Shown: in pieces, positions 1 to 56,178 of the stretch
Layout of the letters: every line of letters begins with the position of its first letter
Position numbering within the stretch: the stretch's first letter is position 1
Origin: a phage
Length of the DNA: 64,000 bases
Strand: one strand, 5' to 3'
Sequence record: PZ386957.1
Program-made: the position numbers and the translations under genes
The notes under the pieces: model-generated
What the model was told of the DNA's origin: nothing
The model's input: only the letters and a program-made list of their open reading frames with translations
The model's database searches: none

Positions 1-2940
<2,940 letters not shown>

Positions 2941-2974
2941 ATACGATAATGCATAAAAAGATGAGGAAATTCTA

Positions 2975-4972
2975 ATGACTCTATTATCACCGGGTTTCGA
3001 AACGAAAGAAACTACTCTCTCCACTACCATTGTGCAATCTGCGACTGGTCGCGCGGCACTGGTAGGTAAATTTCAATGGGGTCCAGCTTTCCAGATTGTT
3101 CAAATTACTAATGAAGTGGAATTAGTAGATAAATTTGGTCAGCCGGATAATAACACCGCAGACTATTTCATGAGCGGGGCTAACTTCCTCCAGTATGGTA
3201 ATGATCTGCGCGTTGTTCGTGTACTGAATAAAGAAAAAGCAAAAAATGCTACTGCCCTCGCGGGTAACGTTGCGTTCGAAATTAGCAACGAAGGTTCTAA
3301 CTATAAAGTTGGCGATACAATCAAGGTAAAATATAAAAACTCCGAAATTGAAACTGGCGGTAAAGTTACTAAAGTAAGCTCAGAAGGTAAGATTAAAGGT
3401 ATCTTTATCCCAACCGGAAAACTGATCGCACACGCTAAAGCCGTAGGCACTTATCCAGAAGTGAACGGTTATACCGTTGAAGTTACTTCCGGTACTGGTA
3501 ACTCCGGTGCATCTGTTACTATCTCCAGCATTGTGACTGATTCCGGTTTGCTGCTTACGGATCTGGAAACTTCCCGTGACAATATCACTAATCAGACTTT
3601 CTTGACCAAACTGCAAAAATATGATATGCCAGCTATCAGCGCAATCTATGCAGGTGAGATCGGGAACTCTCTGGAAGTTGAAGTGTTGTCACGTAGCGCG
3701 TTTACTGGTACTGCACCGACTCTGACTATGTATCCTTACGGTGGTGAACGTACCGCTGCACGCAATCTGGTAGCATATGGTCCGCAGAATGATAACCAAT
3801 ACGCTATTATTGTTCGCCGTGATGGTGTCGTGGTAGAATCATTTGTCCTGTCCACCGTAAAAGGTGATAAGGATGTTTACGGCAATTCCATCTATATGGA
3901 TGATTTCTTTGCCCGTGGTGCTAGCCAGTACATCTACGCGACGGCACAAGGTTGGGTAAACGGTTTTAGCGGTATCATTTCGCTGGCGGGTGGTGTATCG
4001 GCTAACGAAGCCTCCACCAACGATCATCAAAATGATCCGTTCATCGGTGCGATGATGCAAGGTTGGGATCTGTTTGCCGAGCGCGAAACTATCCATGTAA
4101 ACCTGCTGATTGCTGGTGCGTGTGCTGGTGAAGCTGATAACTTCTCTACCGTACAGAAACACGCTGTTTCCATCGGTGATGAGCGTCAGGATTGCTTAGT
4201 GCTGGTATCTCCACCGCGTAGCACTGTAGTTAATATTCCGGTGACTACCGCAGTTGATAATCTGATCAAATGGCGTGAAGGTACTGATAGTTACTCTGAA
4301 AATAACATGAATATCAATACTACCTACGCGGTAATTGACGGTAACTACAAATACCAATATGACAAATATAACGATGTAAACCGTTGGATTCCGCTGGCTG
4401 CTGATATCGCTGGTCTGTGTGCACGCACTGATACCGTAGCTCAACCGTGGATGAGTCCGGCTGGCTATAACCGTGGTCAGATCATGAACGTCGTTAAACT
4501 GGCAATCGAGCCGCGTAAAGCACATCGTGATCGCATGTATCAGTGTGCAATTAACCCGGTAATTGGTGCGGGTGGTGAAGGATTTATCCTGCTGGGCGAT
4601 AAGACCGCTACCAGTGTTCCGAGTCCGTTTGACCGCATTAACGTTCGTCGTTTGTTTAACATGCTGAAAAAGAATATCGGCGATTCCAGCAAATACAAAC
4701 TGTTTGAAAACAACGATAACTTTACTCGTGCGTCTTTCCGTATGGAAGTCTCTCAGTATCTGAACACGATCCGCTCTCTGGGTGGTATCTATGACTTCCG
4801 CGTACAGTGTGACACTACGAATAACACCGCAGATGTGATTGATCGTAATGAGTTTGTCGCTAGCATGTTCATTAAACCTGCTAAATCTATCAACTTCATT
4901 ACTCTATCTTTCACTGCTGTTGCTACTGGTGCTGATTTCGATGAAATCATCGGTCCAGCTAATCAGGCGTAA
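2975..4972 (+). CDS. 18: Tail sheath protein
   Basis: 665 aa; N-terminus MTLLSPG and long collinear similarity to T4 gp18 (FQWGPAFQI, YAIIVRR, TATSVPSPFDRINVRRLFNML); RBS GAGGA upstream. Confidence 0.95.
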   Translation: MTLLSPGFETKETTLSTTIVQSATGRAALVGKFQWGPAFQIVQITNEVELVDKFGQPDNNTADYFMSGANFLQYGNDLRVVRVLNKEKAKNATALAGNVAFEISNEGSNYKVGDTIKVKYKNSEIETGGKVTKVSSEGKIKGIFIPTGKLIAHAKAVGTYPEVNGYTVEVTSGTGNSGASVTISSIVTDSGLLLTDLETSRDNITNQTFLTKLQKYDMPAISAIYAGEIGNSLEVEVLSRSAFTGTAPTLTMYPYGGERTAARNLVAYGPQNDNQYAIIVRRDGVVVESFVLSTVKGDKDVYGNSIYMDDFFARGASQYIYATAQGWVNGFSGIISLAGGVSANEASTNDHQNDPFIGAMMQGWDLFAERETIHVNLLIAGACAGEADNFSTVQKHAVSIGDERQDCLVLVSPPRSTVVNIPVTTAVDNLIKWREGTDSYSENNMNINTTYAVIDGNYKYQYDKYNDVNRWIPLAADIAGLCARTDTVAQPWMSPAGYNRGQIMNVVKLAIEPRKAHRDRMYQCAINPVIGAGGEGFILLGDKTATSVPSPFDRINVRRLFNMLKKNIGDSSKYKLFENNDNFTRASFRMEVSQYLNTIRSLGGIYDFRVQCDTTNNTADVIDRNEFVASMFIKPAKSINFITLSFTAVATGADFDEIIGPANQA

Positions 4973-4999: not shown

Positions 5000-5017
5000 G
5001 CGGGGATTACTCCCCGC
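5000..5017 (+). other. Intercistronic hairpin GCGGGGATTACTCCCCGC between genes 18 and 19, no T-tract
   Basis: Perfect 7-bp GC-rich stem with 4-nt loop seen in sequence; lacks a downstream U-run, so more likely RNA processing/stability or attenuation than a full terminator. Confidence 0.4.
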
Positions 5018-5036
5018 TCTATTAAGGAATACAATC

Positions 5037-5531
5037 ATGGCACTTGATTTAAACGATATTACACGCGGCTTTGAATCAGGCGATTTTGCTCGTCCTAACC
5101 TGTTTGAAGTTGAGATCCCATATCTGGGTCAAAACTTTAAGCTGATGTGTAAAGCTGCTACAGTTCCGGCTGCTACCGTAGAAAAAATCGCGGTAGGCTT
5201 CCAAAACCGCAAGATTAACATTGCTGGCGACCGTGTATATGATGACTGGACTATTACGGTCTTCAACGACGATGCACACAAGATCCGTGATGCTATCGTC
5301 GCGTGGAACGCATTAACACACGGTACTGGTTCGGCAATCACTGGTTCTACCCCAGCACATTACAAAAAACAAGCTGTTCTCCGTCAGCTTAACCGTAACA
5401 CCGAAGCAACTAACGAAAAAACCCTCTATGGCATTTTCCCGCTTAATGTCGGTGAAGTTACTCTCGATTGGGATCAAAACAACGAAGTAGAAACCTTCGA
5501 GGTTACTTTCGCTATCGATTGGGTAGAATAA
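5037..5531 (+). CDS. 19: Tail tube protein
   Basis: 164 aa; collinear with T4 gp19 (FESGDFARPNLF, GFxNRKINxAGDR, TFEVTxAxDxxE). Confidence 0.95.
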   Translation: MALDLNDITRGFESGDFARPNLFEVEIPYLGQNFKLMCKAATVPAATVEKIAVGFQNRKINIAGDRVYDDWTITVFNDDAHKIRDAIVAWNALTHGTGSAITGSTPAHYKKQAVLRQLNRNTEATNEKTLYGIFPLNVGEVTLDWDQNNEVETFEVTFAIDWVE

Positions 5532-5543
5532 ATATATTATCAC

Positions 5544-5561
5544 GCGGGGATTATTCCCCGC
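5544..5561 (+). other. Intercistronic hairpin GCGGGGATTATTCCCCGC between genes 19 and 20
   Basis: Near-identical copy of the 5000-5017 hairpin; the same stem sequence recurs at 55107-55124. Confidence 0.4.
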
Positions 5562-5587
5562 TTAATATCTCCCAATCGAGGTGAATA

Positions 5588-7153
5588 ATGTTTAATAGAT
5601 TAAAGATGCTTGCGCGTTGGGCGGATTTCGACAACGACAAATACGAAGAACAAATTAAATCAAAAGCGGAATCTATCGCTGCACCAAATAACAGTGATGG
5701 TGCTACGGAAGTAGAAATAAATGATAATACACCCGCTAGTGCATGGAACTCTCTAACACAGCAATTTTACAGCACTGACCAGAAGATTAGCAATACTAAA
5801 CAGCTAATTAATACCTATCGTGGATTAATGAATAATCACGAGGTAGAAAATGCCGTTCAAAATATTGTTAATGATGCAATTGTATTCGAGGAAGGGCACG
5901 ATGTTGTATCTCTGAATCTGGAGTCTACCGGATTTAGTGAATCAGTTAAAGAGCGTATTCATGAAGAATTTAAAGATCTCTTAAACACTATCCAGTTTGA
6001 TAAACGCGGTCAGGATATGTTCCGGCGCTGGTATGTTGATTCCCGTATTTTCTTCCATAAAATCATCGGAAAGAGTCCGAAAGATGGGATTGTGGAATTG
6101 CGACAACTCGATCCGCGTAATCTGGAATATGTTCGCGAGATTATCACAGAAGATACGCCGGAAGGTAAAATTTATAAAGCAACGAAAGAATATTTCATTT
6201 ACACCGTAGGAAGTGGTTCTTATTGCGCGGGAGGACAAGTATTCTCTCCGAATAGTCGCGTTAAAATTCCACGTAGTGCTATTACATATGCGCATAGCGG
6301 CTTGATGGATTGTGACGATAAATATATCATTGGTTATTTGCATCGGGCGGTTAAACCTGCTAACCAGCTTAAATTACTGGAAGATGCTATGGTTGTTTTC
6401 CGTATTACCCGCGCGCCGGAACGTAGAGTATTCTTTATTGATACCGGAAACATGAACAACCGCAAGGCCGCACAGCACATGAACTCGGTGGCACAGTCTT
6501 TTAAAAACCGGGTTGTTTATGATGCGTCTACGGGCAAATTAAAGAATCAGCAAGCCAATATTTCTATGACCGAGGATTATTGGTTACAGCGTCGTGATGG
6601 TAAGGCTATTACCGATGTGACTACATTACCTGGTGCATCCGGTATGAGTGATATCGATGACGTTCGCTATTTTAACCGTAAACTTTATGAAGCGTTGCGC
6701 GTGCCACTGTCACGTAGTAATCTCTCAGAAGCAAATATGGTTATTGGCGGTGACGGTAATGAAATTACCCGCGATGAGCTAGAATTTTCTAAATTCATTC
6801 GTACTCTACAGACTCAATTTTCGGAAGTCCTGCGCGATCCTCTTAAATACAATCTGATTCTCAAAAATGTTATCACAGAAGACGATTGGGATCGTGAAAT
6901 AAATAATATCAAGGTTGTTTTCCATCGGGACTCTTATTATACAGAAGTTAAAGACGCGGAAATTTTAGAACGTCGAATCAACCTGATCGAGCGTATCGCC
7001 CCTTACATTGGTAAATATTTCTCAAACCAGACAGTAATGCGCGATATTCTGAAATATACCGATGACCAGATGGACACCGAGAAGAAACAGATCGAAGAAG
7101 AAGCGAACGATCCGCGCTTTAAACAAACTCCCGATGAAATAGAGGATTTTTAA
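5588..7153 (+). CDS. 20: Portal vertex protein
   Basis: 521 aa; strong collinearity with T4 gp20 (FRRWYVDSRIFFHKII, GYLHRAVKPANQLKLLEDA, MTEDYWLQRRDGKA). Confidence 0.95.
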   Translation: MFNRLKMLARWADFDNDKYEEQIKSKAESIAAPNNSDGATEVEINDNTPASAWNSLTQQFYSTDQKISNTKQLINTYRGLMNNHEVENAVQNIVNDAIVFEEGHDVVSLNLESTGFSESVKERIHEEFKDLLNTIQFDKRGQDMFRRWYVDSRIFFHKIIGKSPKDGIVELRQLDPRNLEYVREIITEDTPEGKIYKATKEYFIYTVGSGSYCAGGQVFSPNSRVKIPRSAITYAHSGLMDCDDKYIIGYLHRAVKPANQLKLLEDAMVVFRITRAPERRVFFIDTGNMNNRKAAQHMNSVAQSFKNRVVYDASTGKLKNQQANISMTEDYWLQRRDGKAITDVTTLPGASGMSDIDDVRYFNRKLYEALRVPLSRSNLSEANMVIGGDGNEITRDELEFSKFIRTLQTQFSEVLRDPLKYNLILKNVITEDDWDREINNIKVVFHRDSYYTEVKDAEILERRINLIERIAPYIGKYFSNQTVMRDILKYTDDQMDTEKKQIEEEANDPRFKQTPDEIEDF

Positions 7154-7803: not shown

Positions 7804-8499
7804 ATGGAAAAGAACGAATTACTGATCGAACAATGGGGCGCTCCTTGTGCTCGCGGTAGTTCGTCATTGCTTGAATCATTTGATGATAAGGCTACAGGAA
7901 ATCTCTACATTCAAGGGATTTTCCTGCAAGCCGAAACAGTAAACCGTAATAAACGCTGGTATCCACGCGCGGTACTAGAAAAAGCGGTTACTAAATACAT
8001 TCATGAACAAGTTGAGACACATCAAGCTCTGGGCGAACTGAATCATCCAGCAAGGGCAACACCAGATCCATCTAATGCTTGCATCATAATTGAAAAATTA
8101 TGGTGGGAAGGTAATAACGTTATGGGTAAAGCTCGCGTTATTGAAGGTGATAAAGGGGTCGGTGATAAACTCGCTGCGTTAATTCGCGCTGGCTGGATTC
8201 CTGGCGTTTCCTCCCGTGGATTGGGTCGTTTAAAAGATTCCGGTCGCGGTTATAATATTGTACAGGAAGGTTTTGTGTTAACGGTTGGTGTCGATGTTGT
8301 TTGGGGTCCAAGTGCTCCAGATGCGTGGGTCAAACCAGTGGTTGAATCGGAGGATATTGATTCTAGCGTCTCAGACGCACCAGAAATCGATAATCAGGAA
8401 AAAACGATTAACCCTACACCCAAGCAAGAAAACATCGTAGAATCGAATAATAACGCGTTTATGGCGTTGGCAGAGGCGCTATCTAAACGATATAAATAA
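7804..8499 (+). CDS. 21: Prohead core protease
   Basis: 231 aa; collinear with T4 gp21 (ALGELNHP, AAIIIExxWW, GDKLAAxIRAGWIPGVSSRGLG, GVDxVWGPSAPDAWV). Confidence 0.95.
   Translation: MEKNELLIEQWGAPCARGSSSLLESFDDKATGNLYIQGIFLQAETVNRNKRWYPRAVLEKAVTKYIHEQVETHQALGELNHPARATPDPSNACIIIEKLWWEGNNVMGKARVIEGDKGVGDKLAALIRAGWIPGVSSRGLGRLKDSGRGYNIVQEGFVLTVGVDVVWGPSAPDAWVKPVVESEDIDSSVSDAPEIDNQEKTINPTPKQENIVESNNNAFMALAEALSKRYK
8491..8498 (+). promoter_or_regulatory. T4-type late promoter TATAAATA upstream of gene 22
   Basis: Exact TATAAATA 32 nt upstream of the gene 22 ATG. Confidence 0.7.
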
Positions 8500-10969: not shown

Positions 10970-11049
10970 TCCATTCTAACATAAAATCAGGTCGGGTGCA
11001 ATGCCCGACTTATCATAAACTTTATGACAGTGTAAAGTGTTAATTCCAA

Positions 11050-11085
11050 AGGGTAGATCCGAAAGGGTCTGCCCTTTTTGCTTTT
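11050..11085 (+). terminator. Rho-independent terminator after gene 23
   Basis: 10-bp stem (two G.U pairs) AGGGTAGATC...GGTCTGCCCT followed by TTTTTGCTTTT. Confidence 0.7.
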
Positions 11086-11103: not shown

Positions 11104-11111
11104 TATAAATA
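11104..11111 (+). promoter_or_regulatory. T4-type late promoter TATAAATA upstream of the 23/24 insert module
   Basis: Exact TATAAATA 38 nt upstream of the ATG at 11149. Confidence 0.65.
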
Positions 11112-23876: not shown

Positions 23877-25379
23877 ATGCAGGATATTAAAATTCACTTT
23901 ATTAATTATTCGCATGTTCAAATTGAATGTAGCGATTCAATTCTAATGGAAATGCGAGAATATTTTAGTTTTGAAGTTGAGGGAGCACAGTTCCAAAAAC
24001 GTGTGAAATACGGATCTTGGGATGGGCGTATTCGTCTTTTAGACTACAACGGAAAGTTGCCTATTGGCCTAACAAAAACCGTCGGTATCTTCGCTAAAAA
24101 TATGGGCTATAGCGTATGGGTAGACCCTCGCTTATTCGAAAAAGAACAAGTTACAGAAGAAGAAATTACAAAATGGTGTAATGACTTAGAATTATATTCC
24201 GGTGCTAACAGGATCACCCCGCACTGGTATCAATCAAAGGCAGTCTTTGAAGGTATTCATCATAAACGTAGAATGCTTGTTCTTCCAACGTCTGCGGGTA
24301 AGTCTGCGATTGCTTGTATGTTGTCTCGTTGGTACTTAGAGAACTACGAGGGAAAAGTGTTGATCATTGTCCCGACCACATCTCTTGTTCTCCAGATGCG
24401 TGATGACTTTGTTGATTATCGCCAGTTTCCTTATGAAGCAATTCACACTATCATGAGCGGTACTAGTAAACACGTAGGTGATCGCCTGATCGTTGTTAGT
24501 ACGTGGCAATCAGCATGTAAACAGCCTCGTGAGTGGTTCCAGCAATTTGGGATGGTGATTGTTGATGAATGTCATCGTGCTACCGCCAAAAACCTGCTGA
24601 ACATCGTTACTGACATGGACCACTGTCAATTTAAGATCGGTATGACTGGTTCCCCGCGAGATGGAAAGGCTAACATGATGCAATATGTCGGGTTGTTCGG
24701 TGATATTTCTAAGATTGTTAGTATTGACCGCTTAATGGAAGATGGACAGGTTACAAAGCTGAAAATTAACTGTCTATTCCTTCGATATACCGACGAGGAA
24801 TGTGCTGCTGTTAAAGGACGAGATTATGCCGAAGAGATCAAATACATCACCTCACATGGGCGACGAAATAAGTTTGTATGTAATTTGGCGCTAAAACTCG
24901 CTAGAAAGAACGAAAACGTCTTCCTGATGTTCCGCAATACCAAGCATGGAAAAATGATGTATGAAGCCTTACAGAAGGTACACGATAAGGTTTACTACAT
25001 TGACGGTGGCGTTAAAACCACCGAACGTGATGAATTTAAGAAATTAGCGGAAGGTGAAACAGGGATCATTTGTGTTGCATCCTATGGTGTGTTTTCTACT
25101 GGTGTTTCTATCAAGAACTTGCATCATGTAATTTTTGGTCATCCTGTAAAAGAATCCACTATCGTTAGACAGAGTATCGGGCGATCATTGCGTAAACATG
25201 GTTCTAAGGATATTGCGACCGTCTGGGATGTTGTTGATCACCTTGCTATTAAAACAAAGAGCAAGACCGCTAAGAAACAATTCAGCCACCTGAATTACGC
25301 GCTTAAACACTCGTTAGAACGCATCCGTGTTTATGGGGAAGATCGATTCGAGTACGTGACCAAAACAATTGAGATTTAA
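23877..25379 (+). CDS. uvsW: UvsW RNA-DNA/DNA helicase
   Basis: 500 aa from ATG at 23877 (MQDIKIHF; GAGG RBS); collinear with T4 UvsW (NLPTSAGKS, IIVPTT, DECH, GxSGSxRDGKANIMQYVG, VASYGVFSTG). Confidence 0.93.
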   Translation: MQDIKIHFINYSHVQIECSDSILMEMREYFSFEVEGAQFQKRVKYGSWDGRIRLLDYNGKLPIGLTKTVGIFAKNMGYSVWVDPRLFEKEQVTEEEITKWCNDLELYSGANRITPHWYQSKAVFEGIHHKRRMLVLPTSAGKSAIACMLSRWYLENYEGKVLIIVPTTSLVLQMRDDFVDYRQFPYEAIHTIMSGTSKHVGDRLIVVSTWQSACKQPREWFQQFGMVIVDECHRATAKNLLNIVTDMDHCQFKIGMTGSPRDGKANMMQYVGLFGDISKIVSIDRLMEDGQVTKLKINCLFLRYTDEECAAVKGRDYAEEIKYITSHGRRNKFVCNLALKLARKNENVFLMFRNTKHGKMMYEALQKVHDKVYYIDGGVKTTERDEFKKLAEGETGIICVASYGVFSTGVSIKNLHHVIFGHPVKESTIVRQSIGRSLRKHGSKDIATVWDVVDHLAIKTKSKTAKKQFSHLNYALKHSLERIRVYGEDRFEYVTKTIEI

Positions 25380-25383
25380 TAAA

Positions 25384-25408
25384 TAGGGGCTATATGCCCC
25401 TTTATTTG
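25384..25408 (+). terminator. Terminator after uvsW
   Basis: GGGGC-TATAT-GCCCC followed by TTTATTTG. Confidence 0.6.
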
Positions 25409-37257: not shown

Positions 37258-37286
37258 ATTATAGGGGATCGGTGATCCCCTGTCAA
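37258..37286 (-). promoter_or_regulatory. Early promoter cassette TTGACA-17-TATAAT with palindromic spacer GGGGATCACCGATCCCC
   Basis: Perfect -35 and -10 hexamers; spacer is a palindrome containing two GATC sites. Confidence 0.8.
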
Positions 37287-42907: not shown

Positions 42908-42936
42908 ATTATAGGGGATCACCGATCCCCTGTCAA
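42908..42936 (-). promoter_or_regulatory. Early promoter cassette TTGACA-17-TATAAT with palindromic spacer GGGGATCGGTGATCCCC
   Basis: Perfect hexamers and GATC palindrome. Confidence 0.8.
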
Positions 42937-43860: not shown

Positions 43861-43890
43861 AGTATAGGGGATCGGTGATCCCCTGTCAAC
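43861..43890 (-). promoter_or_regulatory. Early promoter cassette (TTGACA-18-TATACT) with palindromic spacer GGGGATCACCGATCCCC
   Basis: Consensus -35, imperfect -10, GATC palindrome. Confidence 0.6.
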
Positions 43891-49659: not shown

Positions 49660-49675
49660 GCGGGGCAAGCCCCGC
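49660..49675 (-). terminator. Terminator after rnlA
   Basis: GCGGGG-CTTG-CCCCGC followed by CTTTTGTCG on minus strand. Confidence 0.55.
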
Positions 49676-54728: not shown

Positions 54729-54901
54729 TAGTTCACCTTCTGCTTTTCAACACAGTACAGATTCATAAAGCGTTTATTGTCTTCGCGGATAATCTCGCGA
54801 GCTTTAACGCAATCCTGCTTTGTTGCAAATTCAATGCTTGACATATTTCCGTAATTATACATTGAATTGCTGATTGCAATCAATAACCATACAGTAGCCA
54901 T
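54728..54901 (-). CDS. Small hydrophobic-N-terminus peptide, tandem paralog A (57 aa)
   Basis: MATVWLLIAISNSMYNYG...; start overlaps upstream stop. Confidence 0.45.
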   Translation of the reverse strand: MATVWLLIAISNSMYNYGNMSSIEFATKQDCVKAREIIREDNKRFMNLYCVEKQKVN

Positions 54902-55068
54902 TATTCGACAACCTCAAAGCATTTATCATCAGGTAGAATAGCCCATTCTACGCCGTATTCATCCTCAACGTAGTAGCAAGCCCCATCATGTCGAGCATCA
55001 TATACATCACCGACAACAAAGCTATCAGCTAGCTCAAAATCTACAGCAACACATTTTAATTTGATCAT
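54901..55068 (-). CDS. Small protein (55 aa)
   Basis: ATG at 55068 with GTGAGGA RBS downstream of promoter 55100-55128. Confidence 0.5.
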   Translation of the reverse strand: MIKLKCVAVDFELADSFVVGDVYDARHDGACYYVEDEYGVEWAILPDDKCFEVVE

Positions 55069-55099: not shown

Positions 55100-55128
55100 A
55101 TTATAGCGGGGATTTCTCCCCGCGTCAA
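55100..55128 (-). promoter_or_regulatory. Promoter/stem-loop cassette TTGACG-17-TATAAT whose spacer is the hairpin GCGGGGAGAAATCCCCGC
   Basis: The hairpin plus flanking A/T runs also reads as a terminator for the upstream nrdA fragment. Confidence 0.65.
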
Positions 55129-55140
55129 CACTTATTTTTT

Positions 55141-56178
55141 TTACAGTTTGCAAGATGAACATTCGCTAGCGTCTTCCGTACCATCAGCACCATCACGAAC
55201 GTTAGCGTAATACAGTGTCTTGAGGCCGTAATATTGAGCAAACAGCATATCATCTAACACATCAACAATATCGACTTTACCAGTCTTATAAGTGCTTGGA
55301 TCGTAGGATGTATTGGAACTAATCGCCTGGTCTACAAACTTCTGCATGATCGCTGCCAGTGTCAGATAAGGCTTGTTACCTTTCTTGATCAGTGTCCAAA
55401 GCAGGTCAATAACATCAGCATTATTCTCTACGTTCGGAATAACCTGATTAAATTGTCCTTCCTTTGATCCTTTAACCGATACAATCCCGCGAGGCGGTTC
55501 AATACCATTTGTGCTGTTAGATACCTGAGAAGACGACTCACAAGGCATCAGCGCCGAAAGCGTACTGTTACGAATGCCATATTTTTTCAGGTCTTCGCGC
55601 AGTTCTTCCCAATCCATCTCATACACCGGATCAACCAGTTCATCTACTGTCTTTTTGTACCAGTCGATAGGCAGTTCACCGCGTCCATAACGTGTTTCGT
55701 GCATCAGTTCGCAAGCACCCTTCTCTTTAGCCAGTTGCACACTAGCCTTAATCAGAGCATATTGCAAGCGTTCAAACGTTTTATGCGTAAACTCGTTAGC
55801 GTCTTCATATGTGAAGAAATTATCCGCCAAATATGATGCAAAGTTAGTCACACCAACACCCAGAGAGCGACGTTTTTTGGCTGTCAGAGCTTGTTCTACA
55901 GGATAATCCTGATAATCTAACAGGTTGTCAAGTGCACGCACCATAACCATAGCAATGCGTTCTACTTCTTCCATGTTTTCGATATCGAAATTACCTAAAA
56001 CATAGGCAGCTAAGGTGCATAGTCCCACCTCGGCGTCTTCTTTCCCCATCGGAGAAGTGGGGAGTGTAATTTCCATGCAGTTATGTACTAAAATATCATT
56101 AGCGAAGAAAGAATGTGTATCTTCTACGGTAATGTCGTAAACCGGAATTTCAATCTCAATATATTCAATCTCAACCAT
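55141..56178 (-). CDS. nrdA: nrdA C-terminal fragment: split-intein C-half fused to NrdA C-terminal part (from catalytic Cys)
   Basis: 345 aa; first 33 aa MVEIEYIEIEIPVYDITVEDTHSFFANDILVHN are intein blocks F/G, followed by CMEITLPTSP...LCTLAA (compare E. coli NrdA SNLCLEIALPT...ALCTL). Confidence 0.85.
   Translation of the reverse strand: MVEIEYIEIEIPVYDITVEDTHSFFANDILVHNCMEITLPTSPMGKEDAEVGLCTLAAYVLGNFDIENMEEVERIAMVMVRALDNLLDYQDYPVEQALTAKKRRSLGVGVTNFASYLADNFFTYEDANEFTHKTFERLQYALIKASVQLAKEKGACELMHETRYGRGELPIDWYKKTVDELVDPVYEMDWEELREDLKKYGIRNSTLSALMPCESSSQVSNSTNGIEPPRGIVSVKGSKEGQFNQVIPNVENNADVIDLLWTLIKKGNKPYLTLAAIMQKFVDQAISSNTSYDPSTYKTGKVDIVDVLDDMLFAQYYGLKTLYYANVRDGADGTEDASECSSCKL
56080..56178 (-). 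mobile_element. Split intein C-terminal half (IntC, 33 aa)
   Basis: Ends FFANDILVHN followed by Cys, as in known phage-type split inteins. Confidence 0.8.

Follow-up and report, generated by a model that had tools for sequence, protein, structure and literature searches.

Repeated GC-rich stem-loops flanking the tail tube gene of an RB49-like phage as probable gene-end RNA elements

The stretch of phage DNA considered here (record PZ386957.1; 64,000 nucleotides, hereafter the window) is assigned by its gene sequences to Krischvirus, the RB49-like phages of the T4 type, with genes 17-21 showing 92% identity to Shigella phage JK32 and ~86% to RB49 and JSE. Homology to JK32 and RB49 also bears out the identities given to genes 18, 19 and 20 in an earlier, sequence-only reading of this DNA (Table 1). 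In the late block (genes 17 to 23), only genes 18, 19 and 23 are followed by hairpins. Their products, i.e., sheath, tube and major capsid protein, are the most abundant proteins of the virion. At the end of gene 23, a hairpin without a U-tract (GTCGGGTGCAATGCCCGAC; 10991-11009, plus strand) lies 21 nt past the stop codon and is followed ~40 nt further on by a canonical U-tract terminator (11048-11077, plus strand) and then by a late promoter at 11104, an arrangement that is the same in RB49. Upstream of the tail genes, the gene 17 (large terminase) ORF (1-2940, plus strand) encodes at least 979 aa as against 607 aa in RB49, with the Terminase_6N match split into two stretches and Terminase_6C at residues 768-940. 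From this organisation, at least 370 aa seem to have been inserted in frame, possibly as an intein; the annotation of JK32 has two overlapping terminase CDS in this region.

Table 1. Genes, promoters and repeated stem-loops discussed in the text, in window coordinates
Feature	Position	Strand	Remarks
Late promoter TATAAATA	2936-2943	+	upstream of gene 18
Gene 18, tail sheath	2975-4972	+	homology to JK32 and RB49
H1, GCGGGGA-TTAC-TCCCCGC	5000-5017	+	stem extendable to 8 bp, 4999-5018
Gene 19, tail tube	5037-5531	+	homology to JK32 and RB49
Candidate late promoter AATAAATA	5527-5534	+	overlaps gene 19 stop codon, 9 nt before H2
H2, GCGGGGA-TTAT-TCCCCGC	5544-5561	+	between genes 19 and 20
Gene 20, portal	5588-7153	+	homology to JK32 and RB49
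Fourth stem copy (6 bp), GCGGGG-CAAG-CCCCGC	49660-49675	-	between two minus-strand genes
Sigma-70-type early promoter TTGACG-17-TATAAT	55100-55128	-	11/12 matches
H3, GCGGGGA-GAAA-TCCCCGC (transcribed strand)	55106-55123	-	17 nt past nrdA stop codon

An exact search of the whole window for the stem GCGGGGA-N4-TCCCCGC recovers exactly three copies, namely H1 (GCGGGGATTACTCCCCGC), H2 (GCGGGGATTATTCCCCGC) and H3 (GCGGGGATTTCTCCCCGC; plus-strand loop TTTC). The search agrees with the near-identical 18-nt hairpins that had been noticed at the 18/19 and 19/20 junctions; the third copy had been placed at 55107-55124, and its recurrence stands with the coordinate shifted by one. Three matches are reached in none of 100 dinucleotide-preserving shuffles of the window, even with two mismatches tolerated, and the three hairpins fold as RNA with energies of roughly -13 to -15 kcal/mol, corresponding to z-scores between -4.5 and -4.9 relative to shuffled sequences. 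Together with the shuffled controls for the junction hairpins (see below), the motif counts and fold z-scores reject a chance origin. The fourth, shorter copy of the stem has CTTTTGT directly 3' on the minus strand and is classed as terminator-like by our scan. More generally, at least 21 of the 31 GC-rich hairpins in the window are intergenic, as against the 5.5% of the window that is non-coding DNA. The same stem occurs in at least 120 unrelated IMG/VR contigs and is hence ruled out as a lineage marker, while an IMG/VR scan with a pattern specific to the 18/19 junction returned only two Krischvirus contigs, both already in our sample. A search of the entire window against Rfam 15 at gathering thresholds gave no matches.

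H1 starts 27 nt past the stop codon of gene 18, with a further 19 nt separating it from the ATG of gene 19; H2 starts 12 nt past the stop codon of gene 19 and is separated by 26 nt from the ATG of gene 20. With short flanks, H1 folds at -15.4 kcal/mol (z = -4.9) and H2 at -15.1 kcal/mol (z = -4.55). Both present the GC-rich stem-loop of an intrinsic terminator, with stems of 7-8 bp that include six G-C pairs, and both share with such terminators the placement of a stable stem-loop directly after a gene. They part from them in the U-run: the tails of H1 and H2 each have four T in the first 8 nt, as opposed to seven of eight in the window's canonical terminators, including those of the late region, and their tail scores of 2.8-3.0 fall short of the 4.7-4.9 of clear terminators. 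Under the scan's U-tract rule (at least five T in 8) neither is listed as terminator-like, and the description of both hairpins as being without T-tracts is correct by that rule. In the GenBank record of phage G2248 both homologous hairpins figure as putative terminators, based on ARNold predictions (PMC6563267).

On their downstream side, H1 and H2 end 7 and 16 nt upstream of the respective Shine-Dalgarno sequences, without overlapping them. This spacing bears on the idea that the hairpins help to hide the downstream ribosome-binding site and so control translation. There is some pairing potential of this kind at gene 20, where UAUCUC (5566-5571), just 3' of H2, can pair with the Shine-Dalgarno sequence GAGGUG (5578-5583) and a longer fold can enclose the ATG; T4 and Dhakavirus E33 show a similar weak UCCCA...GGAG pairing. 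However, the extra pairing (5566-5583, plus strand) is worth only about -4 kcal/mol and is missing in most lineages, and we regard a translational role as very improbable.

H3 belongs to a different genomic setting. On the minus strand, the -35 hexamer TTGACG (55128-55123) and the -10 hexamer TATAAT (55105-55100) are separated by a 17-nt spacer and rank among the region's best sigma-70 matches; H3 takes in the final base of the -35 hexamer plus the entire spacer, and its earlier description as a promoter spacer is accurate for that strand. Upstream of the promoter lies an A-rich element (55130-55142), with the nrdA stop codon (55141-55143) inside the A-run, and downstream of it a GAGGA and the ATG at 55068 of an ORF (54901-55068) homologous to RB49p233. 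The 'promoter-early stem-loops' (PeSLs) of RB49 and phi1 combine a near-consensus sigma-70 promoter and an AT-rich upstream region with a stem-loop of the form Gn-loop-Cn, most often between the -35 and -10 elements (Arbiol 2010, PMC2839356). Since H3 has every element of such a unit (promoter, stem-loop, AT-rich upstream stop codon, and Shine-Dalgarno sequence with early-gene start), it is, by its sequence context, the stem-loop of a PeSL cassette, which is identical in RB49, JK32 and G5211. Further PeSLs with different stems are present in the window at 37263, 39154, 42913 and 43866. The transcript that starts at the H3 promoter excludes the hairpin, which forms only in the nrdA message coming from upstream; thus, in RNA terms, H3 is a gene-end hairpin like H1 and H2.

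H1 and H2 have the stem-loop type in common with the PeSLs but differ in lacking a sigma-70 promoter and in lying within the conserved late-gene block rather than a hyperplastic region. No sigma-70 promoter with at least 10/12 matches overlaps either of them in the window scan, and the 9/12 matches near them are at chance level (41 observed vs 41.9 expected). As they have no associated sigma-70 promoter, H1 and H2 are not PeSLs. Late genes are undiscussed in the PeSL papers (PMC2839356; Comeau 2014, PMC4122927), and the word 'late' is absent from the second of these.

The gene upstream of H3 has peculiarities of its own. The nrdA region (55141-58788, minus strand) is ~1.4 kb longer than the single 2244-nt gene of RB49 and comprises three ORFs. 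An intein N-terminal splicing region closes the first of these (57181-58788), after the ATP-cone, all-alpha and barrel domains; next comes a free-standing HNH-endonuclease ORF (56171-57145); the last (55141-56178) opens with an intein C-terminal region and continues with what remains of the barrel. Both intein matches lie below the Pfam cut-off. The whole looks like an intein with a homing endonuclease, whether frame-broken or in the form of a split intein (a 'fractured gene').

The TATAAATA upstream of gene 18 is the sole consensus late promoter on the plus strand before the next copy at 8491, and the scan for this consensus found none at the 18/19 or the 19/20 junction. In RB49 the first T of the late-promoter consensus is poorly conserved, with either A or T occurring (Nolan 2006, PMC1524935), and we rescanned the window with the RB49-type consensus WATAAATA. 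Between 2944 and 5037 there is no such match; every one-mismatch variant in this interval falls within gene 18 and departs from the consensus at core positions, and our scan likewise found no good sigma-70 promoter for gene 19. As neither a late nor a sigma-70 promoter is found between 2944 and 5037, gene 19 lacks a promoter of its own and, by this promoter survey, must be expressed by read-through of H1, which must therefore be leaky. H1 thereby has the layout of a 3' stabiliser, i.e., a hairpin between two genes that is read through with no promoter in between.

The situation at gene 20 is less clear-cut. AATAAATA may be its own late promoter, with a predicted transcript start at ~5540 that would place H2 at the 5' end of the message, or it could be a chance match: WATAAATA shows no excess over chance in the window (12 observed vs 14.2 expected), and the copy at 5527 is partly dictated by the Glu-stop codons GAA TAA. 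Since gene 20 possibly has its own promoter, H2 need not control portal expression by read-through, and its status as a read-through intercistronic hairpin is uncertain. In E. coli, the stabilisation of mRNAs by 5'-terminal stem-loops is well established, and by this precedent H2 could mainly be a 5'-terminal stem-loop that shields a separate, AATAAATA-started gene 20 mRNA from 5'-end-dependent RNase E. AATAAATA fits the RB49-type consensus, its 9-nt spacing from H2 is that of the TATAAATA from the 19/20 hairpin in Dhakavirus E33, and a canonical late promoter also precedes this hairpin in Slopekvirus and Pseudotevenvirus. Yet in the latter two the predicted start falls inside the 5' arm of the hairpin, the match itself has the background frequency and codon constraint noted above, and H1 and H3 are left unexplained; we consider this reading rather unlikely as the main account of H2. 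Elsewhere in the window (25378-25401, plus strand), a second AATAAATA overlaps a stop codon and runs into a GC-rich hairpin, AGGGGCTATATGCCCCT, mirroring the arrangement at the 19/20 junction.

To place these hairpins in a wider context, we compared the junctions flanking gene 19 in 12 T4-type lineages. Eleven of the 12 have a hairpin that exceeds shuffled controls (P <=0.016) 4-18 nt past the stop codon of gene 19, and such a hairpin follows gene 18 in eight of the nine junctions with gene 18 directly upstream. The stems are unrelated between genera while the position is kept, such that these hairpins are to be understood as positional analogues rather than alignable homologues. T4 and other Straboviridae resemble the window in the position of the hairpin a few nucleotides past the stop codon and in its short GC-rich stem, and the T4 19/20 hairpin (TGGGGAGAAATCCCCA) even has the core GGGGA-GAAA-TCCCC in common with H3 and with the H1 of G2248. 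They differ in their promoters: most other genera have a TATAAATA beside the hairpin, unlike Krischvirus, in which it is missing from 18/19 and represented at 19/20 only by the variant AATAAATA. T4 has late promoters at its tail tube junction, whereas the tube gene of the RB49 group would depend on reading through a hairpin.

The tetraloops of these hairpins provide a means of distinguishing selection on the RNA from selection on the DNA. UNCG and GNRA tetraloops are unusually stable only as RNA and only in one orientation. When the junction loops of the other genera are read on the transcribed strand, 14 of 15 tetraloops belong to the UNCG or GNRA types, as opposed to none of 15 when read on the complement; in the window, the corresponding counts are 7/10 and 1/10, all these counts being of loops entered by hand, from lineages several of which are mutually related. 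Because this stability is confined to RNA and the tetraloops are strand-asymmetric, the comparison indicates that the gene-end hairpin class as a whole is selected as RNA. H1 (UUAC) and H2 (UUAU) are themselves exceptions, being neither UNCG nor GNRA where most junction loops of the other genera are one or the other; H3, with its GAAA loop, qualifies. The complement of the H1 loop is GUAA, a GNRA, which would fit a past inversion of that loop.

Across 15 Krischvirus genomes, the stems of H1 and H2 are invariant, while the H1 loop takes six states (TTAC, GAAGT, GAAAA, GAAA, TAAAA and TTTTC) and the H2 loop two; G2248 has GAAA at H1, and other Krischvirus genomes have 5-nt H1 loops. In JSE and Skers, the segment ATTTTCT is the exact reverse complement of the AGAAAAT of RB49 with identical flanks, i.e., the loop has been inverted. 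As the stems remain constant while the loops vary freely and are even inverted, these patterns show that structure is what matters and that no factor recognises the loop sequence. The stems never change within the genus and accordingly offer no covariation, so that the structural argument rests on the comparison between genera.

These patterns bear directly on whether some sequence-specific factor, protein or RNA, recognises and binds the shared stem-loop. Such a factor might be expected from the identical 7-bp stem at three sites, its invariance in the 15 genomes, and the agreement of the H1 and H2 loops in each lineage. It is hard to reconcile with six H1 loop states, an exact inversion and both 4- and 5-nt loops among genomes only 0.3-3% apart, with the unrelated stems at the same positions in other genera, with the prevalence of the stem in unrelated viruses, or with the want of an Rfam family match, and we hold it to be the most improbable of the alternatives.

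The loops also have a history at the DNA level. H1 and H2 agree with each other within a lineage (ATTACT/ATTATT in the window; AGAAGTT/AGAAGTT in L001 and pEJ01) and differ completely between lineages, a pattern that points to exchange between the two copies, 544 bp apart, by conversion or template switching. The mosaic JK32 has one loop of each type, matching a crossover at 5432-5441 inside gene 19; this is the sole mappable crossover and lies ~100 nt from H2, so that this exchange made no use of a hairpin. In the PeSLs of the general form AGGGGATC-NNN-GATCCCCT at 37263-37281, 42913-42931 and 43866-43884, the flanks are the same and the loops are GGT, ACC and GGT; as ACC is the exact inverse of GGT, the copy at 42913 shows the same inversion as H1 does between RB49 and JSE/Skers. 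By all indications from these comparisons, the hairpin palindromes are mutationally active as DNA. Escherichia phage UPWr_E1 (PP418985) carries H1 twice (2517-2535 and 2790-2808), within a 273-bp tandem duplication that takes in the end of gene 18, the 18/19 hairpin and the start of gene 19 and includes a stray 'tail sheath protein' fragment CDS; the duplication could be real or an assembly artefact.

It is therefore pertinent to ask if the hairpins might act mainly as DNA, as joints for recombination, gene conversion or template switching, with any effect in the RNA being secondary. The recurrence of one stem at three or four sites, the loops that are shared within and wholly different between lineages, the inversions at H1 (JSE/Skers vs RB49) and at the PeSLs (42913 vs 37263/43866), and the RB49 PeSL crossover that was mapped inside a loop (Arbiol 2010, PMC2839356) would all be in keeping with this. 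Against it stand the JK32 junction, which lies away from the hairpins, the homology of only ~18-24 nt, which is very short for homologous exchange, and the strand bias of the UNCG/GNRA loops and the conservation of position with unrelated stems, both of which favour selection on the RNA; we judge it unlikely that the DNA-level role is the principal one. A related conjecture, which we advance as speculative though with a little more credence, is that the GCGGGG/CCCCGC hairpins behave as REP-like palindromes in the late block, a small family undergoing mutual short-patch gene conversion, loop flips through template switching, and recombination of the PeSL type. If so, gene 19 would be a cassette bracketed by two exchangeable joints.

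Our preferred reading, to which we assign a probability of roughly 0.6, is that H1, H2 and H3 are gene-end RNA stem-loops, of the kind by which T4-type phages ordinarily mark off one cistron from the next, with H1 and H2 acting as leaky intrinsic terminators and/or as barriers to 3'-to-5' exonucleases. Each hairpin would form in the mRNA 12-27 nt past the upstream stop codon (that of sheath, tube or NrdA). H3 would close the nrdA message, with its DNA doubling as the spacer of the early promoter of the next gene, while H1 and H2 would give the messages of gene 18 and of genes 18-19 stable 3' ends, a part of the transcription passing through them. What we observe directly is the structure of the hairpins, where they lie, how this location is kept from genus to genus, the bias of the class towards the RNA strand, and the lack of a gene 19 promoter; that 3' ends form at the hairpins, and that relative mRNA levels are set in this way, is what we infer.

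Experiment on stem-loops of this kind is confined to RB49, whose PeSL211/210 stem-loop (AGGGGATCACGTATCCCCT) is of the same type as H1 and H2 and is likewise without a U-tract. PeSL211/210 reduced downstream lacZ expression as strongly as rrnB T1 (Arbiol 2010, PMC2839356). If H1 blocked transcription as strongly, it would starve gene 19 of transcript; at the opposite extreme, termination at H1 and H2 is possibly negligible, since they fail the simple U-tract rule. A literature search for maps of transcript 3' ends or decay found none usable for Krischvirus or T4 at the 18/19 and 19/20 junctions.

The sequence-only reading had suggested that the hairpins tune mRNA stability or processing to set the stoichiometry of sheath, tube and portal. 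A role at the RNA level in shaping the late mRNAs has the strongest support, from the positional conservation and the strand bias of the UNCG/GNRA loops, though leaky termination is no less probable than an effect on stability or processing, given that ARNold calls the G2248 homologues terminators. The idea of a special stoichiometry device does not survive, as the hairpins belong to the genome-wide gene-end set seen in the intergenic excess of GC-rich hairpins. For the portal, a contribution of H2 through read-through is not required if AATAAATA acts as the gene 20 promoter. Moreover, T4 virions contain 138 copies each of sheath and tube. Because the two proteins are needed in equal numbers, a step-down at the 18/19 junction would have no obvious stoichiometric purpose.

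Among known hairpin classes, two more bear comparison with H1 and H2. The first is the intrinsic terminator, from which H1 is set apart, beyond its tail, by the substantial read-through that it must permit. The second comprises the intercistronic mRNA-stabilising palindromes, such as the REP/BIME elements of E. coli (malE-malF) and the puf hairpins of Rhodobacter. Like these, H1 and H2 are repeated extragenic palindromes without U-tracts that are similar to one another within a genome and, in a polycistronic unit, follow the stop codon of the upstream cistron, the more abundant one; they differ from REP elements in being much shorter, perfect palindromes with no REP consensus.

Earlier publications and GenBank annotation already cover both the hairpin class and these particular sites, and our result, which places the three hairpins in known classes, has little importance beyond annotation in this respect. 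It does nevertheless carry some more specific implications. For the RB49 group, the promoter survey indicates that expression of the tail tube gene requires transcription to pass through a hairpin. That the tetraloops are biased to one strand offers a simple and general argument that such phage hairpins work as RNA, and the loop inversions, along with the concerted change of H1 and H2, illustrate cleanly, on a small scale, how palindromes drive mutation in a phage genome. Finally, were the transcript ends to be mapped, the locus would serve as a convenient natural test of whether hairpins lacking a U-tract terminate transcription or only stabilise the message.
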